The notes under the pieces: model-generated
Databases searched by the model: none
What the model saw: only the letters and a program-made list of their open reading frames with translations
Told to the model about the DNA's origin: nothing
Assembly (NCBI GenBank): GCA_963785235.1
Contig: CAWAUM010000012.1
Span: forward strand, 160,001-224,000
Source of the DNA: an uncultured delta proteobacterium
Lineage (GTDB): Bacteria; Desulfobacterota; Desulfomonilia; UBA1062
Direction of reading: 5' to 3'
Length of the DNA stretch: 64,000 bases
Part shown: positions 118 through 45,717 of the stretch, in pieces
Position numbering within the stretch: the first letter of the stretch is position 1
How the letters are laid out: every line of letters begins with the position of its first letter
Made by a program: the position numbers and the translations under genes

Positions 118-419
118 TCTTGAGGTCTCCTTTTGACCTTACCCATGTTTACGGCTGCATTCATCACTAAAACCCTCCATATATCTTAGCTTCCAGGATG
201 AACGAGTCAAGGACACAGGTCCATTTCATTACGGAAAGAAGAAGTGGTTTGTGTCGGACAGTTTTTACCTTTTTATGGATAGGGGTGGAGGTGATATATG
301 CCGGGCGCTGGTATATCAATCGTGATTGCACAACCTGACCAGCGCCTTGCACTGTTCCCCGGTCAGATTCTACGGGAATAGTAATTCAAACGTCTTGTTT
401 GATGATAGCTGATTGTCTC

Positions 420-491: not shown

Positions 492-2765
492 TCAGGGCTG
501 CGGGTAAGACACCCCGGGGTGATAGACGAGCGTCACCCTGAAATAGTACGGCGCACTGTTGTATCCTCCCCAGTCGTCATCAGGCTCCAGGTTCCTGCTG
601 CCATCTGAGTTGTACAGATAGTTGAAGTCGCTGATACTGAAATAAGTCTGACCTCGCCATGGGTTGCCTACCCAGAACCTGCTCTCACCCGTGGCAGGTG
701 TCCTGATATTCATGGTGGCAGGGACGTTGTTCTGCTTTCCCGCACTGGCCACAAAGCCATCAGACCCACTGATGCGATCGGATACCACGGCGTTCTTATT
801 CCTGTCGGGATAGAACTTCCAAACGTACTCCGCGTCGGCTGCGGGTGCATAGAAATCTACATATATCTCATAATACCAACTGGTGGAAGTATCCAGAGGC
901 TGGAAATCCATAAGGAACCAGTCCTGGTCGCCCTGGTAGTCAACATATCCAGCAATCCAGGGAAATGTGAGCGTGGTCAGCCCTGTCTGGGGTGTATTGA
1001 GCTCGGTTGTGACACCTGAACCTGAAAAAGCAAGCAATGACGTGTTCACACCAAAGATCTTACGGTTTACGGAATCCAGCTCCAAGGTCACCGGGTTTGA
1101 AGACGATTCCGTTGCCTCACTATAATACTCAACCGCAGCCTCAAAAGGAGGTGTTCCACTTGCAACAGCAGGCAGCGTAGTGGGGATATCTTTCACATCA
1201 ACGCGAATCGTATACGTTACATCGCTCCCCTCGTCATCCCTGAAATCGAATACCTTGAAAGAATAGACTCCTGCAGCAGAGCTGGCGGGTATGAGCAGGC
1301 TTGTCTTTAACTTCGTGGGAGCAGTCTCCGCATCAGGGTTCGTAAGGGTCTTGATCAACTGGGCGCCCATAATGCTCAAGGAGTATTCCACCTCGGAAAT
1401 GGGCGCATTGAAATAAACCTCGAGTATCTGGGGTTGTGCATGCGCAGGTATGGTTACATTATACCAGTCCGCATCACCCATGTAGCTGATCTTGCCGGGT
1501 GTGGTCAGGGTAGCCGAAGGCGTAAGGCCGATGGCATTCCCGATGGTGCTGTTGTCATTGGGCGGCGTGTCCGCACTGTCGATGATGTCGAGCATTCTCA
1601 CTGTTGACGTATATGCCGCGCCCTGGGTTATCTTCTGTCCGTCTCCGGCCTGGATCATGAGGTAGTAATTCCCGCTGCCCAGTTTGAGCTGGGTATGCAA
1701 CTCGGCAGCCCCCCCGGTATAGGTGCGGGAATAGACTACAGCCGAATTCGCATCAAGGATGTTGATCTTGTACTTGGCCCTGGTTGCAGCACTGAAGCTC
1801 AGGTGCAGAACCTGGAACCCCGATGACGCAGATGGTTTTGCTATCCGGTAGAAGTCTTTGTCTTCCGTGTAATCCAAAGATCCGTTGATGGTGTAATCCC
1901 GGCCGTACTGTCCGAGATCCACTGTTGTTGCACTAGCGACCACGTCATTCCCGTTAGCCTCTGTATTACTTACTGCATTGATACATACCTGGTACGGGGA
2001 GGCATTATCGAAATGGTCCTTCCCATAATCGCTTACAAGGACATGGTATACCCCTGCAGCCAGATAGTGGATGAGATGATAGTTTTTGGCACCAGAGCTG
2101 GACTGAGATTCTATGAGTTTCCCATTGCTATCGTACAAGGCGACATTGATCTGGACCGGGGTGCCGGTCATGGGTGTGAACGTAACGGCCGTATCAAAGA
2201 TACCGCCTGTAGAGATGAACTTGAAGCAATCGACATCCCCGACATAGCCTATGGTATTTGTGGGACAGGTTGCAGCTCCTGCGGTCAAGGTCACTGCCTG
2301 AGAGATGGAGTCGTTCCCTTCGGACTTGCCGGCATAATCAATGCTCAGGAAGTACGGGTCATTTGAGGCCTTGTCATCCTTGTAATCGCGTACTGCAATA
2401 TAGATGTCCTTGGGCTGGTCAATAACGGCCTTCAATGTCAGATTGGCAGGTACAAGGCTTTTTTCAGGGGCATGATCTCCGTAGATGATGGTCTTGTTGC
2501 CGTTGCTGTCAGCCTGGTAAAGCGTTACGAGGAGCTCCACATCAGGCCGAAGGGTCTCACTGGTGCATCTCACCTGTAAAACACTGCCCGGCTCTGTAGT
2601 TTTAAAGTGGTACCAGTTGACTGCACCGACATTGGAGATCTTCCCGGACACCCTTTCCTGCAAGGCCAGCTCATGTACCCCTGAGTTGGCGTGGTTCGAA
2701 GAGCCCTTGGAGCACGACACCATGAACAGAACCACTATAATGACACAATAGAAAGACCTTCTCAT
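492..2765 (-). CDS. Large lipoprotein with repeated PPC-like beta-sandwich domains (MtsF-like surface protein)
   Basis: 757 aa; signal peptide with lipobox FMVS-C; five repeated motifs (GAVNWYHF, GDVDCFKF, EDKDFYRI, GDADWYNV, GDQDWFLM). Confidence 0.75.
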   Translation of the reverse strand: MRRSFYCVIIVVLFMVSCSKGSSNHANSGVHELALQERVSGKISNVGAVNWYHFKTTEPGSVLQVRCTSETLRPDVELLVTLYQADSNGNKTIIYGDHAPEKSLVPANLTLKAVIDQPKDIYIAVRDYKDDKASNDPYFLSIDYAGKSEGNDSISQAVTLTAGAATCPTNTIGYVGDVDCFKFISTGGIFDTAVTFTPMTGTPVQINVALYDSNGKLIESQSSSGAKNYHLIHYLAAGVYHVLVSDYGKDHFDNASPYQVCINAVSNTEANGNDVVASATTVDLGQYGRDYTINGSLDYTEDKDFYRIAKPSASSGFQVLHLSFSAATRAKYKINILDANSAVVYSRTYTGGAAELHTQLKLGSGNYYLMIQAGDGQKITQGAAYTSTVRMLDIIDSADTPPNDNSTIGNAIGLTPSATLTTPGKISYMGDADWYNVTIPAHAQPQILEVYFNAPISEVEYSLSIMGAQLIKTLTNPDAETAPTKLKTSLLIPASSAAGVYSFKVFDFRDDEGSDVTYTIRVDVKDIPTTLPAVASGTPPFEAAVEYYSEATESSSNPVTLELDSVNRKIFGVNTSLLAFSGSGVTTELNTPQTGLTTLTFPWIAGYVDYQGDQDWFLMDFQPLDTSTSWYYEIYVDFYAPAADAEYVWKFYPDRNKNAVVSDRISGSDGFVASAGKQNNVPATMNIRTPATGESRFWVGNPWRGQTYFSISDFNYLYNSDGSRNLEPDDDWGGYNSAPYYFRVTLVYHPGVSYPQP

Positions 2766-2777
2766 TGGTATTCTCCT

Positions 2778-4385
2778 TTAATGGAGCAACTTGAAATCAC
2801 CCTGGGTAAGGGTGATGATTCTGTCACGGTCATCGATATTGACCACTACCTCTGCCATGCGGAATACCGGCGGGCTGTCGGGCCTGTCTTCCGGAACCTC
2901 GGCGATATAAAACCGGATAAGGTTATCCCCGGCATTCCACAGGGTTCCGTCTTCCTTCACATACTCTAGCGTATCTGCAAGATAGATGTTGGAGATATCA
3001 AAATTAAATTGGCGCACATAGGAGGCCATATCGTCCCCCTGGTTAATGGGCACAAGCCCTGCATCCTTGATGTCATAGATATAGCTGTTCAGTTCCCTGA
3101 TCTTCGGGTCATTGGAGGTAACGTTGGTGTGCCGCTGCACCTCCATCCAATCAAGCACACTGTCAAAGTCGGTATCCTTGTTGGTCTCCACTTCAAGGGG
3201 ATTGGTTCCTGAGAGGAACTCGATACCATCAGGGATGCCATCGGAATCCGTGTCCGGGTTGAGCCTGTTCGTGCCTTTGATATATTCCTCGCAGTCAGTC
3301 AGGCCGTCGTTATCCGAATCAACCCTTACCATGCCTGAGTCACAGATGCTGTCATGGGGATTCAGCGGGTCCAAAACATGGCCGGGAGAACTCGACTTGA
3401 TCTCGAAAAAATCGCTCAGGCCGTCGGAATCGGTATCTCTCCTGGTGGGATCGGTTCCATAAAATGCCTCTTCTTCGTCAGAGAGACCGTCTGTGTCACT
3501 GTCAATGTACACAAGGTCAACACCGGGTTTGACATTATAGTTGTATGCAGCAATGTACTTCACCTTGTATTCAATGGTCAGGCGCATATCCACGATATTG
3601 ATGAAGTCAATGGCCTCGGCATTTTCAAAGAGCCGGAACTGGCCGTTGCCCCTCTCTGCCATACCCTGCAGCGTTGTTTCCGCCTCCTGCTGACGTGCCT
3701 GGCCCGAGGCGTCGGCACCGAAATTGCCCAGCAGGAGGAAGGTATGGAAATTGAAAGACCCGACCCCGTATTCCGTGACCATGTCGGTCATATCCTGGAC
3801 CTTTTTCCATATATCCGCATCTGCCTGGGTCTGTCCCTGGGCATTGGGCACCCCGTCGCTCAGGAAGATGACGATGTACTTCGATCGAACACGCGCCTCT
3901 TCATTGGAGTTGATAATGTCATTGCGGATATCGGCAAAGACGGCATCCAACGTCCCGAGATAATCGGTGGTGGTGTCGTTCTGGACATCTGTCAGGATAT
4001 CTTCCAGTACTGTCGGGTCTTTGGTAAATCCGCCGGTAGTATCGAAAACCGTATTGCTCCACAGCATCACATCAAAGGAGGTGTTCTCGTTGCTGTTGAA
4101 TGCATTGATGAAATCCCTGGCTGCCTGGATGCGCATAAAATAGGGATCAGACCCTGCCACGATCCCCATCTCTTCATCGCCCATGCTCAATGAGCAATCT
4201 ATGGCGAACAGGACCTTTACCGGGAATTTTATCTCATCAGGGCTCTCGGTCAGGAACGAACCCTGAAGCCCCACCTTGGTCTGGACCTGGGTCCGCTCAA
4301 GGTTCGGGCTGTCAGTACACCCGAGCAGAACGGCCAGTACCGTCCCGAGAATGAATAGTGCTGCCTTATTTCTTTTCACACGCAT
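2778..4385 (-). CDS. VWA (MIDAS) domain lipoprotein with bacterial TSP3-type Ca-binding repeats (MtsD/CglB-like adhesin)
   Basis: 535 aa; lipobox LLG-C; FPVKVLFAIDCSLS (DxSxS), TTTDY and FLSDG MIDAS elements; repeats DSDTDGLSDEEE..GTDP, DTDSDGLSDFFE, DSDNDGLTDCEE..GTN, DTDSDGIPDGIE. Confidence 0.85.
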   Translation of the reverse strand: MRVKRNKAALFILGTVLAVLLGCTDSPNLERTQVQTKVGLQGSFLTESPDEIKFPVKVLFAIDCSLSMGDEEMGIVAGSDPYFMRIQAARDFINAFNSNENTSFDVMLWSNTVFDTTGGFTKDPTVLEDILTDVQNDTTTDYLGTLDAVFADIRNDIINSNEEARVRSKYIVIFLSDGVPNAQGQTQADADIWKKVQDMTDMVTEYGVGSFNFHTFLLLGNFGADASGQARQQEAETTLQGMAERGNGQFRLFENAEAIDFINIVDMRLTIEYKVKYIAAYNYNVKPGVDLVYIDSDTDGLSDEEEAFYGTDPTRRDTDSDGLSDFFEIKSSSPGHVLDPLNPHDSICDSGMVRVDSDNDGLTDCEEYIKGTNRLNPDTDSDGIPDGIEFLSGTNPLEVETNKDTDFDSVLDWMEVQRHTNVTSNDPKIRELNSYIYDIKDAGLVPINQGDDMASYVRQFNFDISNIYLADTLEYVKEDGTLWNAGDNLIRFYIAEVPEDRPDSPPVFRMAEVVVNIDDRDRIITLTQGDFKLLH

Positions 4386-5151
4386 CTCCTATTCCGTCCT
4401 GGTCAGAATCTTTTTGATCCGGATTAGCAATATCCGGGCAGTTATCGCATGCATCTCCTATCCCGTCGCTGTCGGAATCATTATTGTTGTCACTGTGGAC
4501 CCGTGGGCAGAGATCAATGGAATCAATGAATCCATCGCTGTCAAAGTCGTTGTCGCACGCATCCCCTCTCCCGTCACTGTCCGTATCCGACTGAACAGGA
4601 TTACCGACATAGAGGCAGTTGTCTATTTCGTTGGGGATGCCATCACCATCCATGTCATCGTCGCAGGTATCTCCTTTGCCGTCGTTATCCGTATCGTTCT
4701 GCGAAGGGTTATAGGTAGTGGGGCAGTTATCCGAGGCGTTTAGTTTTCCGTCTCCATCGATATCATCATCACATGCATCACCTTTACTATCACCATCGAT
4801 ATCCTTCTGGTCGGGATTCGCCATATGAGGACAATTATCACAGGCATCGCCAATGCCATCGCCGTCGGAATCTGCCTGATCGTTCGGGAGATAGGCACAA
4901 TTATCCCTTGTGTCCAAATATCCGTCGGCATCGGCATCTTCATCCAGAGAAAAATATGGCCCAATGTCATATTGCACCAGTATCGGGCCTCCGCCGGACC
5001 CTCCGCCGCCTACTCCTCCTGCCGGAGGTGCGCCGCAGGACTGGTCAGGGCACTCGTCAAACCAGTCGTTAGGGTCGGTGATTGCAAAGGCCTGGGCGTA
5101 TATGATTAAAAGAAAGGCTGTGCAACTGATTATGATTTTACAATATTTCAT
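4366..5151 (-). CDS. Secreted thrombospondin type-3 repeat protein (MtsC-like)
   Basis: 261 aa; signal peptide (AQAFA); ECPDQSCGAP plus Gly-rich N-terminus; tandem DNC..xNPDQxDxDxDGxGDAC repeats. Confidence 0.9.
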   Translation of the reverse strand: MKYCKIIISCTAFLLIIYAQAFAITDPNDWFDECPDQSCGAPPAGGVGGGGSGGGPILVQYDIGPYFSLDEDADADGYLDTRDNCAYLPNDQADSDGDGIGDACDNCPHMANPDQKDIDGDSKGDACDDDIDGDGKLNASDNCPTTYNPSQNDTDNDGKGDTCDDDMDGDGIPNEIDNCLYVGNPVQSDTDSDGRGDACDNDFDSDGFIDSIDLCPRVHSDNNNDSDSDGIGDACDNCPDIANPDQKDSDQDGIGDACEKK

Positions 5152-5163
5152 GATCGCTCCCCT

Positions 5164-6506
5164 TTAACGGTAGAAAAGATAGATGGTCTGGTCAGTGTTC
5201 GAGTATGAGCAGATATATGCGGTGCCTGCATTATCGAACCAAAGCGTGTTATAGTTGCCGATATCGCCTGTAGAGACAACAGTCTCCTTGACCCATGACG
5301 CGCCGCTCCTGCTTGCCAGCATAAGGTCTTTCAGACTCAGGCTCCCGCTGTTGTTCTGCATGGAGTAGTAGGCTATTGATGGATTCCCCGATGAATCAAA
5401 GGCCAGAGAACAATACTTGCCGCAGAAAGTGCTCTCATCCACTATGGTTGAAGTCCAGGAAGAAGATGTCTTGGCAGCATATTTCAGACACTCCTTATGG
5501 GTTATGCCCGAGGCATCCTGATATTCACCGGTAATGTAGTAGGCAACACACGGATTGCCGTTCTTGTCCAGGGCAGCGCTGATACCGCCGACCGTAAAGC
5601 CTGTCTCAACCCATTCATGCCCCCAGGTGCCGTCACTCTGCCGGTATGCAACGCGAAGACCTTTTGTATCAGGATCCGAAAGATTCGGCTTCAGGTCCGC
5701 ATAGTAGAATATGACAGGGTTCTCGTTCTTGTCGAGGATAAGGGCTGCATGGGCACCGACCCTGTTCTGCGCGCTTGCCGAACCGTCCGGATTATAGAAA
5801 TTCCCTTCAACCGCCTCTTCCGTTGCCTCGGCGCCCAGGGATGACCCATCCTTTTCCACATAGAGCAGGTCAGGGTAATTGAAGTTCATGGCATCGATGC
5901 CTTCGTAGAAGAACTGGTAACACAGGTGGATATTGCCGTGGGAATCAAGGGCGGTAGATACATACTTACCGGCAAGACCGTCTTGGAATACGGGATTACG
6001 CTCTACAAAACCAATTCCTCCTGTGTACTCCGCCCACGAACCACTTTGAAGGACACTCACCATGGCATCGGACTGCTGCTCCGATCCACCTGCCCTGACG
6101 GTTCCACCCTGGTATGCAATAGCCACAAGACCGCCCTGCCCCAACGCCATACCAAGGGTCCGGCAGTTGTCTATATCAATGACCGTATCACGGGAAATCT
6201 CGCTTTGAGTCCCCATATCCCAGACGATATGATTGATGCTGTAGTCGCCCGGTATTGTCAGGCTATCCGTGAAAAAAGCGATATGGAGCTGTTTGTTGCT
6301 GTCAACAGCAGCCTTGACCTGGGGAAGCAAAAGGCCGCCGGCCGGCAACTGCTCGATACTGACCTGATGCCAGGTGCTTACCGGGTTGTTGATGATTGCC
6401 TTGTTACCGTCACCCTTTCGTATCACTACCCCCTGATCCCCCGCCGCAGTTGGAGAAAAAAACCAGGGCTATAAAGAGGCATATTAGTATGCCCGAGAGA
6501 ACGCAT
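5164..6506 (-). CDS. Beta-propeller-like lipoprotein (two apparent +1 frameshifts in the signal-peptide region)
   Basis: 420 aa ORF 5164..6426 with repeated ALDxxGNPxIxY blades; removing one G at ~6492 and one at ~6415 joins it to the ATG at 6506, giving MRSLGILICLFIALVFFSN-C-GGGSGGSD (lipobox). Confidence 0.75.
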
Positions 6507-6507
6507 A

Positions 6508-9500: not shown

Positions 9501-9945
9501 GCCATGAAAAAGTGGACCTTGTCCTTTGACTTGAATTCGGGGAAGTCATTCAGAATACGCTGATAGATTTCCAGTGCCTGGTTCTTGAAGGCATTTGATT
9601 CCACCTGATCGAAGGCGGATGCCGCTTCTCCCTTTTCCGTCCTGCGCACATAGTAGACAATCCTTGACTGTTCTATGTAGAGCTCGGCCAGCCTCAGATA
9701 AAGTTCGGGGAGATACGGCTTGTTCCTTGCCTTGTGAATCAGTGCCTTGGTATTGAGGATTGCAAGATCGACCTTTTTCTTGTCCTCGGTGAGCTTTGAG
9801 ATATACCTGGCCTGCTCTGTGCCATTATCCTTCTTCTCATATCCGATATTCGTCGGCATGGACACTGGCCGGTACGACAATGACAAGGGACAAGGCCCCT
9901 ATGATCAGGACACCTGATAATGCGTTGTATGCTCTGTAATTTCAT
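6508..9945 (-). CDS. Very large periplasmic TPR protein, GltD/AgmU-like with a C-terminal GltE/AglT-like TPR region; split by ~6 single-base insertions
   Basis: Consecutive TPR ORFs 8666..9886, 8284..8823, 7635..8666, 6737..7801 and 6508..6846 join on removing one base at ~8704, ~8301, ~7645 and ~6795; signal peptide ..LIIGALSLVIVVPASVHA recovered with fixes at ~9940 and ~9845; motifs PELYLRLAELY and FLTEAPVP..QY...I..KA. Confidence 0.8.
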
Positions 9946-11485
9946 TCATTTGAAAAAGATATCCCACTCTTCAAGATTTTTGCATTTGTTGGGCAGAACC
10001 ACCTTGAGCTCGGCCAGCTCATCGTTCCAGAATTCTCCCTGGAACGGGATAGACTACAATGCCCTGCAATGAACCTTTGCCTGGCTTCTGTTCATCAGTA
10101 TAATGGTATTGATTGACCCGCTGGTACATATCGAGACCTATCTCATAGGCCATCATATGTGCCTCCTCTTCGTACTGCAAAAGGGCATCGGCATACTTCT
10201 CATACTCCGATTCCATTAGGATCTTCAGGTTCGAGGTGCTTTCCTCTATCTGGTATGCATAGATCTTATCAAGATACCCATAGAACGCATCGCTGCCTTC
10301 CTTCCTGAACCCAGCGCACAGGGCACTCTCCTTTTCCAGGAGCTGGAGAAAAGCCCAGGTCTGCTTGATGTTCCTCTTGTTCAGGACCAGAAGCAGCAGC
10401 TCGTTGTTCTCGCTTATCTTGCCGCGCTGATAGATGCCGCTTAAGGCCTTGCCGTAATGCCCCTTGAACTCATCCACCACGCCCATGGCACTCTGGTAAT
10501 GGCATACATCCTTATAGATGAATGACTTCAGCATGTAGTATTCCGGCGTCAGATAGTTTCTGTAACTCGGGGCCTCAAAGGCATACAGCAGGCCCATGGC
10601 CTTTTCCGGATTTCCCATCCGGTACTGGGCCCATGCCCTTTCCAGGAGATTCTGGGACTGGGAAAGGATATTCTGCTCGATAGTCTCATAGAGCAGGTCG
10701 GATTCCTTGAATTTACCCTGCTCATAGAGCAGCCGTGCCAGGGTCTTGCGAACATCGTCCTTGAGGGACTCATCCGTGCAAGAGCCGGAAAGGATCTGGT
10801 TCAAAAGGGGCACCGCCTCATCGATCCGGTTATTGTAGATCTTCAGCAAGGCTTTCTGGTTCAAAAATTTGTAGTAATAATAGGTGCCTGGTTTGATCTT
10901 GGCGAAATGTTCATCCCCCCAGGTAATAAAACCATGTTCCCAGTCATAGACGCCCTGGTGATAATTGATGAAGGCCGAGAGGTTCCCGTCCGCATATCCG
11001 AATTCCTGGTCGCATACGGTCTGGGTGATGATCAGATCGTTGTCAAATGCCTGGGAACGGGACATGGTCTCGAATATCTCCATGCTGTACTCGACTATCT
11101 TTGGGTTGGGTTTCCTGGAGACAAGCCGGGCCAGGATGTCGGCTGCTGCATGGGAATAACCCAGCTTCTTCAGTGAGACGCCTAAAAAAAACTCGGCCCA
11201 CTCGTAATCGGCCGCATCCGGTGAATAGGCGCTGATATACTCATAGAAATAGGGGCAGGCCATCTCATAGTTTTGGTCTTTGAACAGCTCATATCCCGTC
11301 AGGAAATTCGTCTGATCAAGTTGGACCTGGGCCTTAGGTTCTTTCGCGTCGGGTGTAACAGGTTCTGGTGTTACAGCTTCGGGTGTTACAGGCTCCATTG
11401 TAACAGCGTCGGGCAATGCTGCATATCCGGAACTGAAAAGCCCCAAGCAGAAAGCTATGATGAGAATGGGAAGTATTCTATTCAT
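9942..11485 (-). CDS. Periplasmic TPR protein, GltC-like (frameshift at ~10046)
   Basis: Signal peptide MNRILPILIIAFCLGLFSSGYA; LLERAWAQY and IYKDVCHY motifs; removing one base at ~10046 gives the C-terminus YPFQGEFWNDELAELKVVLPNKC, matching the GltC-type PFxGExWxDEL...C motif. Confidence 0.8.
11346..11413. repeat. Coding tandem repeat, ~4.5 x 15 bp (Pro/Thr linker)
   Basis: GCGTCGGGTGTAACA / GGTTCTGGTGTTACA / GCTTCGGGTGTTACA / GGCTCCATTGTAACA, encoding PDAVTMEPVTPEAVTPEPVTPDA. Confidence 0.85.
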
Positions 11486-12200
11486 TGTTGTCTTTCTTTT
11501 CAAGATATCCTTTGAGCTTCTCGACGGTTTCATCCTGCTCAGTCTTGTCGGGGAACAGATTGAACTGGAACGAAAGGCCGATACCGAAATACACGTTGTT
11601 CTCTGTCTTGTCCTTTTTCATGTTGATCAAGTCCCTGATCTCAAGGGTCATGCAGAGATTCTTGTTAAGAAAATAACGGGTGCCGGCGCCTACGCAGACG
11701 GAAGGGTCGCTCTCGGCATCCTTTTCGCCGTTGCTGTACTTCTTTTCATAATTGATGATGCCGCCGCCTAAGATAAGGTAACTTTCATGGTTTATGATGC
11801 CTTTGTTCCAAAGGGCTTCCTTTCCATACAGCGGTTTGATGATGAGGTTTGAGTGGACCATGTATTTGGGCTCCAGGAACACCTCGGGCGTGACACCAAA
11901 TTCCTTTTCGAGCTTGCCCTTGATGTCCTTCTCCCGGGTGAACATGAACTGGCCTCTCGCAACCTCCCAGGCCAGGTAGCCGTTGAAGTGATAGGTGTAG
12001 CCTATCCCTACGGGATATACGTTGAAAAAATCATCATCGGGAATGTAGCCGAAGTTCAGGCCTATTTCATGATAGCGGTGAAACACCCTCTCCTGGATGG
12101 CAAATACCTTCTCATCATCTTTGGTATCCTGGCACAGACCAGGGCTCGAGATCAGGATCGCGAACAGAATCAGGATGCCTAGCACAGATCTTTTATTCAT
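11478..12200 (-). CDS. Outer-membrane beta-barrel protein, GltA/GltB/GltH-like
   Basis: 240 aa; signal peptide; VFAIQERVF..HE, YTYHFN..LAWE, KPLYGK and GAGTRYFL motifs; alternating strand pattern ending GLSFQF. Confidence 0.8.
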   Translation of the reverse strand: MNKRSVLGILILFAILISSPGLCQDTKDDEKVFAIQERVFHRYHEIGLNFGYIPDDDFFNVYPVGIGYTYHFNGYLAWEVARGQFMFTREKDIKGKLEKEFGVTPEVFLEPKYMVHSNLIIKPLYGKEALWNKGIINHESYLILGGGIINYEKKYSNGEKDAESDPSVCVGAGTRYFLNKNLCMTLEIRDLINMKKDKTENNVYFGIGLSFQFNLFPDKTEQDETVEKLKGYLEKKDNNE

Positions 12201-12213
12201 TGCTCTTAACTCC

Positions 12214-14754
12214 TTAGAACCCTACGATATCGAAAATGAACGGATAGGATACGATCACTTCACTCCCCTCGGGCTGAGGGAATTCCCATGATTTTATTGC
12301 ATACTGTATGCAGGAATGGATATCAGTTGAATTGAGCGTGGATGACTTGATCTTTACCTCTCCGACCTTGCCCGACATCAGGATCTTCCATTCGAACACG
12401 ACCCTTCCCATGAGCGACGGGCTTGCCACCAGCGCCGTTTCATAACACCTGGTGATCTCATCAAGGTGCTGGTCAATGATCTTCTTGACCTCTTCCCTGC
12501 TCATGCCTCCGCCCTGAACCTTAACGGTCTTGTTCAGCTGGGCGCTCACCTTTGCCTTGACCTGCTGCGTGCCTGTACTGCCCTTTTCCAGTGCGGCAAC
12601 CCTTACTTCTCCGCCAGGACCACCTGATCCACCGGTTCCGGTACCGTCACCTGTCCCTGAACCACCTGTCCCTCCACTACTCCTTAAGACCTGTGAAGAT
12701 CCCTTGGTGCTCACGATGCCCGCCTTTGGTATCTCGATCCTTCCACCACCCAGTTTGCCTACGATGCCGCCGACCTTGAACTGGGCCTTGTTTTCAGCCG
12801 GACTGCTTACTGCATCCAGGTTTGTAACCGCTGCCATGGCTTCGGTGGGTTTTATGCCGATACTATCCCCGAGCATGCTGAGGAGCCCTGCCTGGTGAAT
12901 ATTCTTCGTTGAGACATTACCCTCCCCTGATCCGCCTCCGGACCCAGTACCAGATCCGGTACCATTGCCACCCGTCCCTGAACCGCCGCCGCCCGAGGTT
13001 GATGTACGCGAGGAGGCAGCCTTTGACGGTGCAGACTGGGCGGTAGCAAGGCGGTGATCATTTGATAGAGCTGTGATGTGCCTTTTCCCTATTTTCTGTG
13101 CAAACTGCTCTTCTTTCAGCTTGATGATCTCAGGCGGTTTCTTAGGGACCTCGGGTGCCTGAGCTATCTTCTTGATCTCGTTTAACTGCCTGGTATCCAC
13201 CTGAACAAATCGGCCTTTATCCTGGAGCTCCGGTTCGTATTTGTAGGTAGGCATCATCCCCAGGATCACCAAGATGATGACATGAACGATCACCGATCTT
13301 GTGAAGTGCCGCGCATACACCTTGTCATTATTCAGGGTTCCCTTTACCGGCGGGCTGACACAAGGGCTTGTCTGCCTGAGGAGATATTCGTATGGACCCA
13401 GGTGTATGACTACCTCTTCATGGCGGCCAATGGGTCTTGACTGTGCCCCTGGAACACTTCTCTTGAAGGATTCCAGGTCACTGGGAATTTCATGCCCCAT
13501 TCCCAGGGCATGGCCTGCCTCGATGCAACCATCCGCCTGATCATCCAGATAGAGAAACATCTCGCCCGCGCCCTTGTTCTCGGCAAGGCAAAACAGCCCC
13601 TTATCTTTCCGGATGAGGTATTTCTCCTGTGCGTGCAGAAACCTCACATCGATAATGTCATCATTCCTGCTCTGGACAATCTCCAGAAGGATCTCATTAT
13701 CGGTTATCCTGTTGCTGACTGATGCCGCCAAGGCAACGCCGTTCTTTATACTTTCTTTCAGAGAGAATGTTGCCCGGGCCTCTTCATCGTCATCTTCATC
13801 GTCATCTTCTATGACGGCTGCCTTTCTCATACCCTGCAGCTCTGTGGATACGACACCGGAGGTTTCATGGCTCTCCTGGCCGCCAAGGGCATGGATGGAT
13901 GAACCTGTTTGGGGCTCATTACATTGGCCCTCTGATGTGTCCAACTCTCGAGGATCAGGTTCGGCCTCCTTATGGACAGGTGAGCTTTGGTCAGTGCTGC
14001 GCTCAATGGAACACAAGGCGCCGGTGTCCTCGAACCTGGCCTGAAGCTCTACAACAGAGCGATAATCCGCATTCCTCTTGAGTATGGCCTTCCTGCCCGA
14101 AAACAGTCTCTCTATAGAGCTCTCATCTTTCTTGAACAAGCCCTTGAGGTTCTTCCTGACCTCATCAAGGGATGCACCCTCACGGATGCGGCCTTCAAAT
14201 ATCAGGTTGTATCGATCCGGACCGTCCGGCAGTTCATCCATGCCCGAACCGGTTTTGGACTGGTCGGTATCAGCGTTATCCCGGGTCTCATGCATTATGG
14301 CATTTTCTTGCAGACGTTCAACATCCGGAGCTTTCTTATCCGGCCCCGCAGCCGCCTTTTCATGTCGCTGAGAAGTTCCCTTCAGGGATGCACCCGGAGC
14401 ACCCTGCCCCTTGCCATTCCTGTTCATTTTAGCCTTGATGGTATAGGGCCCGATCAACAGGGAATCCAGGGGGTTGACTGCCATGGACTCGCAGATACCG
14501 TCATTACCGGATCCCGGATAGGAAACCATGAGACGTCCATCCATGACGCAGAGCACTGCATGGATATTCGATACACCCTGATCGCTGAGCTGAAGATCAG
14601 TATCATTGCCACTGCCTATGGTGATCTCTTTCTTACAGAAGCAATCCCATCCCAGGCACTCTTCTCCCCTAAAGACAAATAACTGGATCATGGGGAGGTC
14701 ATCTGCAGCCCTCAGATTCAATGTCTGTTTCTCCATAATTTGCTCATTATCCAT
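12214..14754 (-). CDS. GltG/PglI-like inner-membrane energy transducer (FHA-like N-terminus, one TM, Pro/Gly-rich linker, TonB-C/AgmX-type C-terminus)
   Basis: 846 aa; ITIGSG..DLQL..VS..HA FHA-like motif; TM SVIVHVIILVILG; C-terminus ITRCYE..L..PSLMGRV..EW.I..SGKV..C..WEFPQPEG..V.VSYPFIF. Confidence 0.85.
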   Translation of the reverse strand: MDNEQIMEKQTLNLRAADDLPMIQLFVFRGEECLGWDCFCKKEITIGSGNDTDLQLSDQGVSNIHAVLCVMDGRLMVSYPGSGNDGICESMAVNPLDSLLIGPYTIKAKMNRNGKGQGAPGASLKGTSQRHEKAAAGPDKKAPDVERLQENAIMHETRDNADTDQSKTGSGMDELPDGPDRYNLIFEGRIREGASLDEVRKNLKGLFKKDESSIERLFSGRKAILKRNADYRSVVELQARFEDTGALCSIERSTDQSSPVHKEAEPDPRELDTSEGQCNEPQTGSSIHALGGQESHETSGVVSTELQGMRKAAVIEDDDEDDDEEARATFSLKESIKNGVALAASVSNRITDNEILLEIVQSRNDDIIDVRFLHAQEKYLIRKDKGLFCLAENKGAGEMFLYLDDQADGCIEAGHALGMGHEIPSDLESFKRSVPGAQSRPIGRHEEVVIHLGPYEYLLRQTSPCVSPPVKGTLNNDKVYARHFTRSVIVHVIILVILGMMPTYKYEPELQDKGRFVQVDTRQLNEIKKIAQAPEVPKKPPEIIKLKEEQFAQKIGKRHITALSNDHRLATAQSAPSKAASSRTSTSGGGGSGTGGNGTGSGTGSGGGSGEGNVSTKNIHQAGLLSMLGDSIGIKPTEAMAAVTNLDAVSSPAENKAQFKVGGIVGKLGGGRIEIPKAGIVSTKGSSQVLRSSGGTGGSGTGDGTGTGGSGGPGGEVRVAALEKGSTGTQQVKAKVSAQLNKTVKVQGGGMSREEVKKIIDQHLDEITRCYETALVASPSLMGRVVFEWKILMSGKVGEVKIKSSTLNSTDIHSCIQYAIKSWEFPQPEGSEVIVSYPFIFDIVGF

Positions 14755-14804
14755 TATAGTTTTCCAAGCTGAAGCCTTATGGCTTCAAGCCATCAGGGTC
14801 TCGA

Positions 14805-15218
14805 TCAATATCCATCCTGGGAGACCAGATGATCCTTGCCTTGACGTTCGCTGGTATTTGACTGATTCTCTTTTTGATCCTTGATTTTTACCCTGGCGGC
14901 ATCAACCAAGAAGCCATCAAGGATCTCTTCACGATAATCCTGGCGATACTTGAGCATGCTCTTGATCTCGCTTTTTTTTCGCTGGAGGAGATAGACCGCC
15001 CCTGACTTGATTGTCTGTCCGATAATGTATGTATTGCCGAAATCGATTCTATTCGTACGTGACTCGAGTGTGTCTTTCGTTATTGCTGGTTCCTCTTTCT
15101 GAGTTATTCCCTGGTCCTTCTCTTGAGCGGATGCTGCCCACAGGGTTGTATATATTGCTGTGAGAATAAAAAAGATCGCTGCAATTATCAGCATTAGTTT
15201 TCTTAGTATATCTCTCAT
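14805..15218 (-). CDS. Small exported protein, GltF/CglF-like
   Basis: 137 aa; signal peptide; RIDFGNTYIIGQTIKSGAVYLLQRKKSEIKSMLKYRQDYREEI fits the IDF...I.G...K...YL..R......L...R..F pattern; sits directly upstream of the GltG-like gene. Confidence 0.7.
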   Translation of the reverse strand: MRDILRKLMLIIAAIFFILTAIYTTLWAASAQEKDQGITQKEEPAITKDTLESRTNRIDFGNTYIIGQTIKSGAVYLLQRKKSEIKSMLKYRQDYREEILDGFLVDAARVKIKDQKENQSNTSERQGKDHLVSQDGY

Positions 15219-15230
15219 GGAATCATCCCC

Positions 15231-15710
15231 TTACTGCTTCAGCACTCCAAACTGGAAATTGGGAAATCCGGCCATTCCGGCTGTCTTGATGATGCCGTTA
15301 ATGGTTTTGAACGAAAGGCGTTTATCACACAGGAACAGGACAAGGCTCTTGTCCTTGCCCTCGACATTTTCTTGAGCCGTCTTCTGGCGGCATTTTACAA
15401 GCTTCTGGTACAGCACCGAGCCTTGGAGATTATTGAGATCAAGACCCACGACAGCCCCATCCTTTATCTGTGCAATGGGCTCTTCTCCCAACCACATGGT
15501 GTTCTCTGAAACAGCAAGCCTGATGCTGTCCGTAAAATCTCCTTTGGCCGTTGATTTCGGCAGGCTGATGTTCCCATCAATGCTGAAACGGGCGACTTGA
15601 TCCGAAAATGATGCAAGCAGGAAGATGAGAAGAAAGGTGAAGATATCCACCATCGATGTCATTATTAATTTGGGGGGGGTAACCCTTCTTGAATGACTGC
15701 CCAATGCCAT
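15231..15710 (-). CDS. exbD: ExbD/TolR family motor subunit (AglQ-like, Asp-containing TM)
   Basis: 159 aa; TM TSMVDIFTFLLIFLL; LPKS and CDKRLSF..I..TAGMAGF. Confidence 0.9.
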   Translation of the reverse strand: MALGSHSRRVTPPKLIMTSMVDIFTFLLIFLLASFSDQVARFSIDGNISLPKSTAKGDFTDSIRLAVSENTMWLGEEPIAQIKDGAVVGLDLNNLQGSVLYQKLVKCRQKTAQENVEGKDKSLVLFLCDKRLSFKTINGIIKTAGMAGFPNFQFGVLKQ

Positions 15711-15721
15711 AGCTGCTCTCC

Positions 15722-16231
15722 TTACCCGATCTTCCCTGATATCACTACATTGGGGAATAACTGGCCATCCTTTGAAAACCGGGCAACATCCATGGCCTGG
15801 ATGATGGTGTCGTAGATGATGCTATTATCCGGAATGATAATGACGGTATCGCTTTTGGGATATTGCGTTTTAATTGTTTGAAGGAATGAAGCGAGTTTGC
15901 CTAATGGGTATTGCGCCGTGTTCTCTTTTGGAAAAAAGGTTCCTAATCGATTCAGTGTCTCAGGATCAACCTCATCACACAGTGCTGATAAATTAATGCC
16001 CTTATTATCGAGTTCCACAACTACCGTGACCTTGATGTTACTTTCCTGGACCTTCTCACCTTCAGAATTCCCCAGAACCGGGACGGAAGTGTTGATGGCC
16101 CTGAGATTAAAGAAGCTGAAGGATATGAGTAGAAGAAGAACTATCACCAGGAACACATTCATGACCGGGGTAACATCTATATCAGCCTCTTCTTCATCTG
16201 GCCTTTTTCGGTTGTGCCTGGAACCTAGCAT
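15722..16231 (-). CDS. exbD: ExbD/TolR family motor subunit (Asn in place of the catalytic Asp)
   Basis: 169 aa; TM DVTPVMNVFLVIVLLLL; C-terminus PDNSIIYDTIIQAMDVAR...LFPNV. Confidence 0.88.
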   Translation of the reverse strand: MLGSRHNRKRPDEEEADIDVTPVMNVFLVIVLLLLISFSFFNLRAINTSVPVLGNSEGEKVQESNIKVTVVVELDNKGINLSALCDEVDPETLNRLGTFFPKENTAQYPLGKLASFLQTIKTQYPKSDTVIIIPDNSIIYDTIIQAMDVARFSKDGQLFPNVVISGKIG

Positions 16232-16860
16232 TGCGATTCCTTTTCATGCTTCAGAGATGAAAGAATATTGAAAAGCCTCAATGCCTTGTGCTCCAACTCA
16301 TCGATTACAGACTCACCCTTGTTGTTGATGATATAAAAACCAATCAGGCATGGTATGGCGATTAAAAGTCCGAAGGCCGTTGTCAGCATGGCAACTGAGA
16401 TACCGCTTGCAAGTATCTCCTGCTTCATGCTGTCACTCGCATGCGCTACACCTTCGAATGCGGTGATCAACCCATGAATTGCTCCAAGCAGGCCGATGAG
16501 CGTTGCGATATTTGCGAACATGGAGAACAGGTTTGTCTTGCTCTTGATCCTCGGGATCTCCCTGATTATCTCCTCTTCCATTGCCCGTTCGATTTCCTTG
16601 TCTCTCTTGTCTGACTTCATGAGACCGGCCTTTAAAATCCTGCCCAGAGGATGCTTTTCAATCCGGGTGCATTCCTCGATAGCAGCCCTGAAATTATATT
16701 TCTCCAAAGACAGCACAATCTTCTGAAATGCCTGATCCGTATCCAGCCTTAGGCGGAAAAATAAATAGCTTGCGCGTTCACAAAACAATGCGAAGGCAAT
16801 AATTGAAACAAACAAGATGGGGTGCATGAAAAAACCACCTTTTATATAGAGCGATAACAT
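16225..16860 (-). CDS. MotA/TolQ/ExbB proton channel protein (AglR-like)
   Basis: 211 aa; GGFFMHPI..ER; ATLIGLLGAIHGLITAF; GISVAMLTTAFGLLIAIP; AGGAG RBS. Confidence 0.93.
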   Translation of the reverse strand: MLSLYIKGGFFMHPILFVSIIAFALFCERASYLFFRLRLDTDQAFQKIVLSLEKYNFRAAIEECTRIEKHPLGRILKAGLMKSDKRDKEIERAMEEEIIREIPRIKSKTNLFSMFANIATLIGLLGAIHGLITAFEGVAHASDSMKQEILASGISVAMLTTAFGLLIAIPCLIGFYIINNKGESVIDELEHKALRLFNILSSLKHEKESQC

Positions 16861-17004
16861 AAAGTCTCCTTTCTCATTCTGTAATAACTCAGTAGGATGC
16901 CCAAACTAATTACATTTAATACTACTAAAGATGTTACTTATTACAGTTTCATTGCGCCAAATTATCAATTTAGTTATTAAATCTACCGCTTGGTGTTCCC
17001 CATG

Positions 17005-17020
17005 AGCAGTTTTTGTGCCA
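17005..17020 (-). promoter_or_regulatory. Sigma54 (-24/-12) promoter of the motor/Glt/adhesin operon
   Basis: Minus strand TGGCAC-AAAAA-CTGCT (GG-N10-GC), ~145 nt upstream of the ATG at 16860; AT-rich tract and near-IHF site AATCAAATATTAA (~17060-17072) further upstream. Confidence 0.75.
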
Positions 17021-17360
17021 TGTCTTGAGACGATATGTTTTGTCTTTTTTCTCATATCTTTAATATTTGATTTATTATCATTATGTTAAGATTTATTTTT
17101 TTGTAAATTATTCCCTGCCTGACCATTGAGTTTAGTGGTAATTTCCCTTCGACAGCCTGTGAAGAATTACATATTTTGTAAATGCAGTTACTTTATTGAA
17201 CGTGGATGTCGTTAATAGTAATTGCGATTCTCTTACACCTTTCTGAATCAATAGGAATAATCCACCGGTATGCATGCATGCACCGTGAGATAATCCTTAC
17301 TTTGAGCCTTTCCATTGTCTTTGCCATAAACTGTGTTTATAATCGCTAAAGGTCCAACCC

Positions 17361-18482: not shown

Positions 18483-18492
18483 GGAGCTGATC

Positions 18493-33927: not shown

Positions 33928-34012
33928 TAGTCCTCCCGTCCTGACAGGGCAATCCATCCTGAAAAGCTGATTCGGTTTTCTTTATTGTCTTTGTTGTCTT
34001 TCGTAAACATAT

Positions 34013-45351: not shown

Positions 45352-45717
45352 TCAGCCTGAAAAGCAATCCACATCCCCATTGTAGATATTGATGCGGATG
45401 ATGCAGTCGCCGGGAACGGGATTTTCAGGATACTGCCAGTACCTGCCCACAAGGCTGAGCTGCCCCTGGCAGGCGCAGTCGCTGCTCCGCATGATGTAGT
45501 AGGCATCATCCTCGTCGATAGGTAGCCATACCGGACGGTCGAGACTGATCACAAGGGAAAGGCCGTGTTCGTCAAAGCGTATCACCACGGATGTGGCAAG
45601 TTCATCGGAATCGGTGATTACACATGCTGCTAAAATCATCGGCACAGCAAGCGCCATGGCCTTCAGCCATGGCCTTGACCGACGAATGCGCACAGTCTGC
45701 TGCACATCATTTTCCAT
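45352..45717 (-). CDS. Hypothetical lipoprotein
   Basis: 121 aa overlapping the DUF362 gene stop; hydrophobic stretch plus LAA-C lipobox. Confidence 0.55.
   Translation of the reverse strand: MENDVQQTVRIRRSRPWLKAMALAVPMILAACVITDSDELATSVVIRFDEHGLSLVISLDRPVWLPIDEDDAYYIMRSSDCACQGQLSLVGRYWQYPENPVPGDCIIRINIYNGDVDCFSG

Follow-up and report, generated by a model that had tools for sequence, protein, structure and literature searches.

A twelve-gene operon for a putative Agl/Glt-type motor with a conserved set of adhesin-like exported proteins in an uncultured anaerobe outside Myxococcota

Beyond the Agl-Glt and Agl-Nfs machines of Myxococcus xanthus, a "core complex" of AglRQS with GltC, D, E and G has been described in Gammaproteobacteria, Geobacter and Fibrobacter, and in expanded form in Bdellovibrio (Luciano et al, 2011, PMC3169522; Wartel et al, 2013, PMC3858216); both papers already propose different cargoes for such machines. 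The novelty that an earlier note on this DNA attached to an Agl/Glt-type system outside the myxobacteria was for this reason set too high. Several individual parts of the M. xanthus machinery bear on the locus described here: AglR has been modelled as a pentamer with a mixed AglQ/AglS plug (PMC11761067), GltF is identical to CglF (PMC4488436), and the Glt machine includes the VWA lipoproteins CglB and CglD, the latter with TSP/COMP-type calcium repeats (PMC9946355; bioRxiv 10.1101/2023.10.19.562135). The same note placed a glt paralogue cluster beside the mts cohesion genes, and the locus tags agree: the G5 gltD paralogue is MXAN_1327 (PMC3169522) and MtsC is MXAN_1334 (PMC12475490), seven tags apart.

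The window (the whole stretch of DNA analyzed, 64,000 nucleotides) contains, at 492-16860 on the minus strand, twelve tightly packed genes identified from the open reading frame listing and family scans, with intergenic gaps of -56 to +50 nt for pairs in which both gene ends are readable. Their order is TolQ-like, two ExbD/TolR-like, GltF-like, GltG-like, an OMP_myx_plus β-barrel, GltC-like TPR and GltD-like TPR; downstream of the latter lie four genes for exported products, namely a β-propeller lipoprotein, a TSP3-repeat protein, a lipoprotein with VWA-MIDAS and TSP3 elements, and a multi-β-sandwich lipoprotein. Gene content and order are as the earlier note had them, as is the lack of a TonB-dependent receptor, TolB or Pal (none of the twelve products matches such families in the scans). 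Two of its descriptions required amendment: the "giant GltD/E-like TPR" protein is indeed a long TPR protein, but corresponds to one GltD-like gene of ~1151 codons, split here over at least six frames, and the "four adhesin-like proteins" are all exported, but the first is a β-propeller lipoprotein encoded by a separate gene. Glt-specific homology, when tested, extended beyond generic Ton and TPR families, with matches to NF033768, TIGR04565 and the GltC, GltG, CglF, MtsC and MtsD models; scores stay under the equivalog cut-offs of the GltG, GltC, CglF, MtsC and MtsD models, and these proteins are hence relatives, not orthologues, by NCBI's standard. A sigma-70-like promoter match (TTTACA-16-CATAAT, 10/12; 17080..17107, minus strand) sits ~220 nt upstream of the TolQ-like gene, as a consensus match only, in a region with 27 such sites against 19.6 expected.

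The proton channel subunit (TolQ/ExbB/AglR-like, 16225..16860; all genes from here on lie on the minus strand) is a 211-aa protein with three hydrophobic helices, matching PF01618 MotA_ExbB (E 5.3e-28) and, under its cut-off, the tolQ model TIGR02796 (E 2.7e-21); it is one of six MotA/ExbB-family genes in the genome. The two ExbD/TolR-like subunits, TolR1 (15722..16231, 169 aa; PF02472 ExbD, E 1.6e-12) and TolR2 (15231..15710, 159 aa; PF02472 ExbD, E 3e-10), differ at the canonical membrane proton-binding position, which is Asn in TolR1 (6/6 aligned orthologues) and a retained Asp in TolR2 (again 6/6). The GltG-like transducer (12214..14754, 846 aa) combines an N-terminal FHA domain (PF00498, PF16697), a single membrane helix at residues 484-502, a Gly/Ser-rich linker of 249 residues and a TonB-C-like AgmX/PglI domain at its C-terminus. 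The C-terminal domain scores 108.8 bits against NF033768 (AgmX/PglI; cut-off 40), and the protein 94 bits (E 8.5e-27) against NF033760 GltG, whose cut-off is 650. A genome search for AgmX/PglI-type domains returned this copy only, with no second GltG/GltJ-type tail.

Periplasmic and outer-membrane candidates occupy the center of the cluster. The small exported GltF (CglF)-like protein (14805..15218, 137 aa) has a conserved core motif and matches NF033764 gliding_CglF under its cut-off (E 1e-5), a model matched by all eight GltF-like orthologues (best E 1.6e-6). The barrel (11478..12200, 240 aa, with signal peptide) exceeds the cut-off of TIGR04565 OMP_myx_plus (90.3 bits versus 60) and also matches PF13505 OMP_b-brl. 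The GltC-like exported TPR protein (10019..11533, called as an ORF of 504 aa; NF033756 gliding_GltC, E 6e-24, under cut-off) likely starts at its second Met, near 11485; its last ~30 codons are frame-shifted by an insertion at 10048, and in relatives the protein is 496-595 aa long and runs on into the GltD start. The GltD-like TPR scaffold (6508..9990, ~1151 codons, 5′ end approximate), which has YbgF/CpoB-type TPR matches in the family scans, is present here as pieces (8666-9886, 8284-8823, 7635-8666, 6737-7801 and 6508-6846 on the frame map). Five relatives encode it in a single ORF of 1139-1159 aa, and in L002, L015 and L016 the pieces fall, in the right order, along single ORFs of 1139-1156 aa. 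Its atlas neighbors, a lead only, are TPR proteins of 1000-1160 aa from Pseudomonadota, Myxococcota and Bdellovibrionota. Counterparts of GltE, GltH, GltI, GltJ, GltK and CglB were not found, the search for GltE and CglB being genome-wide.

Of the four exported products, the β-propeller lipoprotein (5164..6560) has only an approximate 5′ end (called ORF 5164-6426, 420 aa), as insertions at 6419 and 6498 cut off the N-terminus with its lipobox; the lipobox is present in orthologues. Its AlphaFold2 model is all-β (pLDDT 81.8, pTM 0.86), its top Foldseek matches are propeller lyases and sialidases (7esk: E 2.7e-10, TM 0.60, 11% identity), and none of the 123 members of its protein family is named. 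The secreted MtsC-like protein (4366..5151, 261 aa) consists of calcium-binding thrombospondin type-3 repeats (PF02412 TSP_3, E 8.8e-48, seven stretches) and reaches 255 bits against NF047638 MtsC (cut-off 350; E 1e-75); a C-terminal sorting tag occurs only in orthologues from family f46, the window's protein having none. The MtsD/CglD-like lipoprotein (2778..4385, 535 aa) joins a VWA domain (PF00092) to bacterial TSP3 repeats (PF18884 TSP3_bac) and matches NF047639 MtsD (E 1.6e-28) and NF033765 CglD (E 3.8e-12), both under cut-off; its lipobox Cys and the MIDAS residues D63, S65, S67, T140 and D177 are invariant in 12/12 sequences. The last product (492..2765, 757 aa, lipobox present) is modeled by AlphaFold2 (pLDDT 70.8) as about five or six β-sandwich units, and its Foldseek matches, tandem CUB domains and ColG collagen-binding domains, have low TM scores owing to its multi-domain nature.

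All twelve genes are adjacent in each of the six other genomes with enough contig, which span three families within the phylum (G008 and G009 from the same genus, G207 and G074 from f36, G084 and G121 from f46); in the two from f46 the order is cyclically permuted, placing the adhesin block in front of the motor with the twelve genes still together. The unit is partly visible on the shorter or damaged contigs L002 and L014, and public locus tags put the propeller and VWA genes two genes apart in two further MAGs. Distribution is patchy: in a 401-genome sample of the phylum the VWA lipoprotein occurs in 11 genomes (10 of the 400 others), all 11 having a GltG-type domain above cut-off, and 8 of the 14 other same-genus genomes have a GltG-like protein. 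Values of dN/dS lie between 0.03 and 0.17 in every gene except GltF (0.134 for the GltD-like gene read through; GltF has no estimate, its dS not being computable), which points to purifying selection on the unit. The named relatives are labeled Thermodesulfobacteriota or Desulfomonilia, with none from Myxococcota, and the flanking genes are syntenic in same-genus genomes; the host is an anaerobic bacterium outside Myxococcota. The contig is thus neither myxobacterial nor chimeric, in keeping with the earlier note's non-myxobacterial host, the gene order on which that note relied holds across families, and its reading of the locus as an Agl-Glt-like motor and adhesin unit agrees with the family matches and the sixfold adjacency. 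The sequences themselves show the parts, their homologies and their joint inheritance.

We favor, with some reserve, a self-contained, proton-driven Agl/Glt-type machine by which metal-dependent adhesins would be presented or moved; the couplings between parts, the surface exposure and the cellular role are drawn by analogy with Myxococcus Agl-Glt and its CglB/CglD. An inner-membrane Tol/Exb-like stator (a TolQ-like channel whose mixed plug combines two TolR-like subunits, one with the proton-binding Asp and one without) would turn proton flow into movement. This movement would act on the GltG-like protein, whose FHA domain is predicted to be cytoplasmic and whose long flexible linker could carry the TonB-C-like domain across the periplasm, there to engage a scaffold of GltD-, GltC- and GltF-like proteins beneath the small outer-membrane barrel. 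The same four exported proteins always accompany the machine, and its likeliest job would be to display, anchor or move these integrin-like adhesins on the cell surface in an energy-dependent way, serving attachment, cell-cell cohesion or gliding.

Whether the machine is intact in this genome depends on ten single-base insertions unique to this assembly (tract 6419..10048; positions 10048, 9944, 9914, 9845, 8704, 8299, 7643, 6790, 6498 and 6419), which disrupt GltD together with the neighboring ends of the GltC and propeller genes. If they are real, the locus is a relic here, with GltD, the GltC tail and the propeller signal sequence lost, a possibility that we regard as less likely than not. 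Decay would fit the packing of the insertions into 3.6 kb while ~27 kb of comparable surrounding sequence has none; uniform sequencing error does not account for such confinement, and comparison with the closest relative, G011, shows no uncompensated in-gene indel elsewhere in the cluster or in ~14.5 kb of flank. G011 has itself lost TolR2 and most of TolR1 (a ~836 bp gap) along with 425 bp of GltD, two larger deletions in the same cluster which make real decay in this clade possible, and a search with the GltG-like query does not find the cluster in 6 of 14 other same-genus genomes. Against this, the changes are all +1, mostly outside homopolymer runs and unaccompanied by deletions or stop codons, dropping nine inserted letters yields one open GltD frame of 1151 codons, and the read-through dN/dS of GltD resembles that of its neighbors. 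Alignment shows the ten insertions to be absent from three relatives, and none of the contigs aligned from four metagenome runs (X1-X4) carries them; for every insertion, contigs from one or more of these runs omit a letter at that position or within 6 bases of it. The insertions are thus probably assembly errors, in which case the system is probably intact in the living organism.

The nature of the cargo invites other readings. It is possible, though unlikely in our view, that the motor moves or organizes a surface exopolymer, as Myxococcus Agl-Nfs does with spore-coat polymer, and that the propeller, the carbohydrate-binding-module-like β-sandwich lipoprotein and the TSP3/VWA proteins bind or trim glycan. 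The propeller's top structural matches, polysaccharide lyases and sialidases, are glycan-active folds, the 757-aa lipoprotein resembles tandem β-sandwich binding modules, and sugar, protein or lipid cargo has been suggested for machines related to Agl-Nfs (PMC3858216); yet the propeller's likeness to the enzymes, at ~11% identity, is one of fold, family scans place no glycosyltransferase or polysaccharide export gene in the unit, and an invariant MIDAS site with TSP3 repeats is typical of protein or matrix adhesion. A true gliding motor with the adhesins as traction points, as proposed for the expanded core clusters of Bdellovibrio, strikes us as rather improbable: the cluster has R, Q, S, D, F, G and C counterparts and one A/B-type barrel, approaching the AglRQS plus GltD, E, F, G, C, A and B set whose bearers may glide (a speculation in PMC3169522), but it has one barrel gene only and no GltE counterpart, the cytoplasmic tracking part GltI is not in the operon, and the genome has a single GltG/GltJ-type tail. 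A specialized Tol-Pal-like system that tethers or invaginates the outer membrane and plays no part in adhesion would suit the TolQ/TolR-like genes, the TolA-like transducer, the YbgF/CpoB-type repeats of the GltD-like protein and a propeller lipoprotein recalling TolB. We think this very improbable, given that family scans find no TolB, Pal or TolA match, that the five other MotA/ExbB-family genes could serve Tol-Pal and TonB, that the unit always includes the VWA and TSP3 proteins, and that most genomes of the phylum lack it, as would not be expected of a housekeeping system.

With M. xanthus Agl-Glt, the adhesin-handling machine that we favor shares a TolQ-like gene with two different TolR-like genes, a transducer with FHA domain, membrane helix and TonB-C-like domain, GltF-, GltC- and GltD-like periplasmic proteins with a small outer-membrane barrel, and a CglD-like VWA lipoprotein with TSP-type calcium repeats. 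It differs in being one operon rather than three or more loci, in having one barrel in place of GltA/B/H, in having no detected GltE, GltI, GltJ, GltK or CglB counterpart, in its additional propeller and β-sandwich lipoproteins, and in its anaerobic non-myxobacterial host and HMM scores far under equivalog cut-offs. The Nfs system (NfsA-H) is likewise a single-locus Glt paralogue set lacking I, J and K and driven by a Tol-like motor, but borrows AglRQS encoded elsewhere and has two A/B barrels with E and H, whereas here the motor genes are part of the unit, alongside adhesin-like genes. Tol-Pal likewise has a TolQ/TolR-type stator, a propeller protein, YbgF/CpoB-like TPR repeats and a long transducer ending in a globular domain; the unit departs from it in its missing TolA, TolB and Pal family matches, two different TolR paralogues, adhesin genes and patchy, accessory distribution. 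To the Myxococcus G5/mts locus it may be related through TSP3 proteins matching the MtsC and MtsD models, with scores under cut-offs, and the C-terminal end of the f46 MtsC-like proteins (Cys motif, membrane helix, basic tail) resembles a MYXO-CTERM tag, whereas the window's protein has no such tag. Like the core complexes, it is a stand-alone, single-region Agl/Glt-like set in bacteria not known to glide; unlike them, it includes a fixed exported module of four genes as well as GltF-like and A/B-type barrel genes, reported in the 2011 survey from Myxococcales and Bdellovibrionales only (PMC3169522). What is new is that one twelve-gene operon unites a gliding-motor relative of the Myxococcus type with an unvarying set of predicted integrin-like surface proteins; this package, never studied, is conserved in several uncultured lineages.

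The 12 minus-strand genes in the ORF listing between window positions 492 and 16860 are separated by intergenic gaps of -56 to +50 nt wherever both gene ends are readable, which bears out the tight packing and gene order read by the earlier note. The cluster opens with a TolQ-like gene (MotA/ExbB/TolQ family, PF01618, E 5.3e-28) and two tandem TolR-like genes (TolR1 and TolR2; ExbD/TolR family, PF02472), followed by a gene for an exported GltF-like protein of 137 aa that weakly matches the NCBIfam model gliding_CglF (CglF being GltF, PMC4488436), a match shared by 8/8 orthologues. The fifth product, GltG-like and 846 aa long, has an FHA domain, and its single membrane helix spans residues 484-502. 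A Gly/Ser-rich linker of 249 residues and an AgmX/PglI C-terminal domain (NF033768, 108.8 bits; cut-off 40) complete the protein. Next come an outer-membrane beta-barrel of 240 aa (TIGR04565 OMP_myx_plus, 90.3 against a cut-off of 60), a GltC-like TPR protein (NF033756, E 6e-24) and a long GltD-like TPR protein whose gene reads as broken in the source assembly. The last four products are a 420-aa all-beta protein (hereafter the propeller), a 261-aa MtsC-like protein of thrombospondin type-3 (TSP3) repeats (MtsC model, E 1e-75), a 535-aa MtsD/CglD-like lipoprotein with a VWA domain and bacterial TSP3 repeats (MtsD E 1.6e-28, CglD E 3.8e-12; hereafter the VWA lipoprotein), and a 757-aa beta-sandwich lipoprotein.

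All 12 genes are adjacent in each of the six genomes whose contigs are long enough to judge. Conservation of the gene order in other genomes, on which the earlier note had staked its reading, is borne out: the order of the window is kept in the undamaged full loci of two same-genus genomes (G008 and G009) and in two genomes of another family (G207 and G074, 30-60% identity), and is cyclically permuted in a third family (G084 and G121), running MtsC-like, VWA, beta-sandwich, motor, GltF, GltG, barrel, GltC, GltD, propeller. A public Thermodesulfobacteriota bacterium MAG contig carries the first nine genes and then ends, and the contig of G274 shows the last visible gene pair only. Because of this synteny the 12 genes are, as judged from sequence, one unit. 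Comparison of the window with G008 (Nei-Gojobori) gave dN/dS values of 0.03-0.17 for 11 of the 12 genes, with no estimate for GltF (dS not computable); these figures are rough, as dS exceeds 1 in 10 of the 11 genes and is 0.86 in the MtsD-like gene.

The VWA lipoprotein is found in 11 of the 401 genomes of the phylum sample (source genome counted), all of which also carry the GltG-type domain over cut-off. The best 120 of its 1554 matches are 54-96% identical, and the named relatives among these 120 include Desulfomonilia (77%), Desulfuromonas sp. (65%) and Candidatus Magnetomorum HK-1 (57%), together with Desulfobacterales and Desulfosarcinaceae. The cluster is an accessory one in its genus, where the GltG-like protein was found in 8 of 14 other genomes. 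The GltG-type domain occurs in 69/401 genomes, a figure that is not a count of Glt clusters, since three of four other GltG-type loci inspected had no TolQ/TolR/GltD-like neighbours by the query set used. The fourth (L063, G061:C1:798000-817900), from a complete genome within the phylum, holds a simpler Glt-like set made up of a GltD-like TPR protein, a TolQ-like protein, a TolR-like protein and a 501-aa protein with a GltG-type tail; the queries used detected none of the four exported genes there.

The source genome (3.91 Mb, 13 contigs, 93% complete) is syntenic with same-genus genomes in the genes flanking the cluster (93% identity to G011, 72-79% to G008), and the contig is therefore no chimera at this point, a possibility the earlier note had held against itself. 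Upstream, divergent from the cluster, lie two adjacent HGD-D family genes (window 17361-19764, plus strand) of the 2-hydroxyacyl-CoA dehydratase / benzoyl-CoA reductase BcrC/BadD type, the members of whose cluster are named BcrC/BadD/HgdB in another source; an enoyl-CoA hydratase gene lies farther upstream. These neighbours fit an anaerobic host, in agreement with the anaerobic acyl-CoA metaboliser proposed at first reading. In same-genus genomes that lack the cluster, the left flank is kept to about window 190-230 (G002 and G003) and the right flank from 17391 (G002), the two flanks lying on different contigs, a layout compatible with either insertion or deletion.

Several other features of the window may be recorded here. 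The gene at 19819-20526 (minus strand) joins a pyrimidine-dimer DNA glycosylase domain to DUF1722, in a presumed anaerobe. At 32644-37651 (minus strand), some 15 kb from the cluster, an HDOD-domain response regulator adjoins a 1212-aa protein whose representative is named a PAS-domain sensor. Two same-strand ORFs of 249 and 340 aa at 45352-46729 (minus strand) overlap by ~395 nt in different frames, which could be a frameshift or a chance frame.

The channel gene and its two distinct TolR/ExbD-like partners reproduce the AglR/AglQ/AglS pattern. TolR1 and TolR2 form separate groups with 16-20% identity between them, and all 6 TolR2 orthologues retain the canonical membrane Asp, where all 6 TolR1 orthologues have Asn. 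In stators of the Tol/Exb/Mot kind, protons bind to the membrane Asp of TolR/ExbD/MotB; its retention in TolR2 only suggests that in this stator a TolQ-like ring probably surrounds a mixed plug of TolR1 and TolR2, of which one subunit can be protonated. Besides the TolQ-like gene of the cluster, the genome carries five other MotA/ExbB-family genes, and the cluster copy is its only GltG-type tail (NF033768), which argues for a dedicated motor and against a GltJ-like second transducer; the GltJ for which the earlier note proposed a search is thus not found in this 93% complete genome. The GltG-like protein has the GltG-type layout (cytoplasmic FHA, one membrane helix, periplasmic AgmX/PglI or TonB-C-like tail). 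In a published structural model of Agl-Glt (PMC11761067), an AglR pentamer encloses one AglQ and one AglS, GltG is held via its helix and adjoining FHA-like domain, a long disordered stretch of GltG reaches GltD across the periplasm, and GltF links GltC and GltD with the GltG tail; by analogy, a similar chain from motor to barrel may operate in the 12-gene unit.

In five relatives one ORF of 1139-1159 aa encodes the GltD-like protein; in the window the gene is spread over at least six frames. Comparison with three relatives locates ten single-base insertions (10048, 9944, 9914, 9845, 8704, 8299, 7643, 6790, 6498 and 6419), which affect the stretch from the last codons of GltC through all of GltD to the propeller N-terminus; the inserted letters are various bases, mostly outside homopolymer runs. 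With nine of them omitted, a single frame stays open, free of stops, over 1151 codons, and the read-through GltD has a dN/dS of 0.134, similar to its neighbours. Metagenome contigs from four runs (four studies) were aligned to this tract at >=88% likeness. At each of the ten places at least one run leaves out one letter there or within 6 bases; all four runs omit the letter at 6419, and only run X1 does so at 9912 and 10048. At places of split depth, the tables of the four runs show no contig with the extra letter. As to the occurrence of this tract, the 20 runs listed (X1-X20), from 15 studies, each hold 18-30% of the words sampled from window 6300-10200, their sources including freshwater, wetland, sediment, pond, rock and hot-spring metagenomes; aligned pieces in the four runs range from >99% to <90% alike, so that several close strains coexist.

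We consider it likely that the ten insertions are assembly errors. They look unlike natural decay: all ten are insertions, deletions and stops are absent, and amino-acid change is not in excess. Against assembly error stands their local confinement: in the rest of the cluster and ~14.5 kb of flank, indels relative to G011 are intergenic, at gene ends or compensated (a genome-wide count of overlapping open frames, with 3033 candidate pairs, is too noisy for a frameshift estimate). Real-looking damage to the same cluster in G011, the closest relative, also speaks against it. In that genome (L014, G011:C15:5500-23826; 88-98% protein identity), a gap of ~836 bp (window 15223-16059) removes TolR2 and most of TolR1, leaving an ORF that fuses the first 58 TolR1 residues to GltF, and a 425-bp deletion lies within GltD (window 7915-8441); the cluster may be decaying in the G011 lineage. 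For the window itself we retain assembly error as the favoured reading, and the tract stands as a warning of local errors in the assembly or, failing that, as a very unusual mutational pattern.

The exported products may act at the cell surface. An AlphaFold2 model of the propeller, built from eight orthologues (pLDDT 81.8, pTM 0.86), is all-beta with ~30 predicted strands, and its Foldseek matches are beta-propeller lyases and sialidases (7esk, E 2.7e-10, TM 0.60, 11% identity); its orthologues carry a lipobox. A profile of the propeller alignment retrieved only 123 proteins at E<=1e-5, none with a product name, from MAGs labelled Deltaproteobacteria, Desulfomonilia, Nitrospinota or Pseudomonadota bacterium and from Candidatus Magnetomorum. 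The 757-aa lipoprotein is modelled as a chain of beta-sandwich domains (AlphaFold2, pLDDT 70.8) that matches tandem CUB domains and ColG collagen-binding domains, with the low TM expected for a multi-domain chain. In the VWA lipoprotein, the lipobox Cys and MIDAS residues D63, S65, S67, T140 and D177 are invariant (12/12 sequences; T140 and D177 placed by VWA-fold position rather than structure), which gives the complete MIDAS motif (D-x-S-x-S ... T ... D) of VWA/integrin-I-like adhesins. Complex prediction of the barrel (24-240) with this lipoprotein (24-535), supplied as alignments, gave 0.00 in both runs, a result that bears on neither side. The three lipoproteins and the TSP3 protein would lie at the outer membrane or surface, where motor activity may expose, anchor or move them; attachment, cohesion and gliding are candidate roles. 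The surface-adhesin machine of the earlier note is supported in its anatomy, homology, host and conservation, its function being one that we infer.

NF033768 and TIGR04565 gave Glt-specific matches over cut-off, in line with the relationship first proposed; the stricter equivalog cut-offs were missed for GltG (94 against 650), GltC (84.7 against 450), CglF (25.4 against 90), MtsC (255.1 against 350) and MtsD (99.3 against 800), so that the GltG, GltC and CglF/GltF standard of the Myxococcus gliding apparatus proper is not reached. The GltD-like protein (1151-1159 aa) has only generic YbgF/TPR matches in model libraries where we know of no GltD model; its atlas neighbours of like length, in Myxococcota, Bdellovibrionota and Pseudomonadota, are a lead only. 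The cluster holds no detectable GltE-type TPR lipoprotein (NF033758), matches elsewhere in the genome being generic TPR ones for a model that also matches in 12/14 control genomes. CglB (NF033757) has no match in the 93% complete genome, and family scans of the 12 products found no GltI, AglZ or MglA/MglB-type domain; models NF033759 (TraA), NF047640 (AgmC_N) and NF047637 (lipo_CC0125), also without matches, are irrelevant here.

On the Mts side, orthologues of family f46 score 219.7 with the MtsC model and 159.3 with the MtsD model. The MtsC-like protein of the window ends straight after its last TSP3 repeat with no C-terminal tag. Two f46 orthologues (L040:13248-14240 and L039:5620-6555) continue into a Gly-rich stretch with a Cys motif, a hydrophobic membrane helix and a Lys/Arg tail, a three-part layout equal to that of MYXO-CTERM (PMC11980579), although the MYXO-CTERM model gives no match at E<=0.001; this tail is confined to f46 and absent from the window protein and the f36 orthologues. 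In Myxococcus, MtsC is MXAN_1334 (PMC12475490) and the gltD paralogue of cluster G5, one of the paralogue clusters G3 (nfs), G4 and G5, is MXAN_1327 (Luciano et al. 2011, PMC3169522); by these sources the two lie seven locus tags apart, making the glt paralogue cluster that the earlier note sets beside the mts genes a good lead.

The general idea of Glt-type machines outside myxobacteria is already published. Luciano et al. (2011, PMC3169522) describe a 'core complex' whose genes, aglRQS and gltC, D, E and G, are grouped in a single region of the genome in Gammaproteobacteria, Geobacter, Fibrobacter and one betaproteobacterium; they give its function as unknown, and in their survey gltF, gltA and gltB are limited to Myxococcales and Bdellovibrionales. 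Wartel et al. (PMC3858216) suggest that the cargo of related machines may be sugar, protein or lipid. The claim that such a system is uncharacterised in these organisms accordingly stands only for the specific 12-gene type, of which no description was found in the literature searched (supplementary cluster surveys, possibly showing related clusters, lay outside that search); nor did Agl-Glt or AglRQS appear in the papers listed (15 of 374) for Desulfobacterota, Thermodesulfobacteriota, Magnetomorum or Geobacter, and of the mts products only MtsC was met, mentioned in passing. What distinguishes the type is that it encodes its own motor, that it has GltF-like and A/B-type barrel genes in hosts outside Myxococcota and Bdellovibrionota, that no GltE is detectable, and that propeller, TSP3 protein, VWA lipoprotein and beta-sandwich lipoprotein form a fixed module.

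The unit offers a concrete hypothesis for the cargo of core Glt machines, namely adhesins, in a gene set small enough to test by transfer into, or deletion from, a tractable host, and is relevant to work on gliding, Tol-like motors and aggregation in anaerobes; it may also bear on adhesion in syntrophic or multicellular Desulfobacterota. A bolder proposal, to which we give a low probability, is that it represents a minimal ancestral-type 'bacterial focal adhesion', in which a Tol-like motor would expose and pull integrin-like lipoproteins (VWA-MIDAS with calcium-binding TSP3), binding cells in syntrophic aggregates and in multicellular forms, among them the magnetotactic Candidatus Magnetomorum, with the Myxococcus G5 glt paralogue and mts genes as its orthologue. 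If that were true, the older job of Glt-type machines would be motor-driven cohesion, not gliding.

Set against known systems, the unit differs from Tol-Pal, in which TolQR operate with TolA, TolB and Pal: family scans of the 12 products gave no match to these three, and the cluster genes score under the cut-offs of the tolQ and tolR models. It differs likewise from TonB-dependent uptake, which needs a TonB-dependent receptor gene; no such receptor, TonB_dep_Rec or plug domain was matched among the 12 products, and the absence of receptor, TolB and Pal noticed at first reading thus holds. It has a counterpart in Myxococcus, where the Glt surface partners are described as two VWA lipoproteins, CglB and CglD, the latter calcium-dependent with COMP/thrombospondin-type calcium repeats (PMC9946355; bioRxiv 10.1101/2023.10.19.562135) and equal in domain content to the VWA and TSP3 lipoprotein of the cluster. 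The Myxococcus focal-adhesion motor is, however, spread over many loci, whereas the 12-gene unit brings motor, transducer, scaffold, barrel and putative integrin-like adhesins into one compact block, inherited in sediment, wetland and hot-spring anaerobes; its carriers include relatives named Desulfomonilia, Desulfuromonas, Desulfosarcinaceae and Candidatus Magnetomorum.
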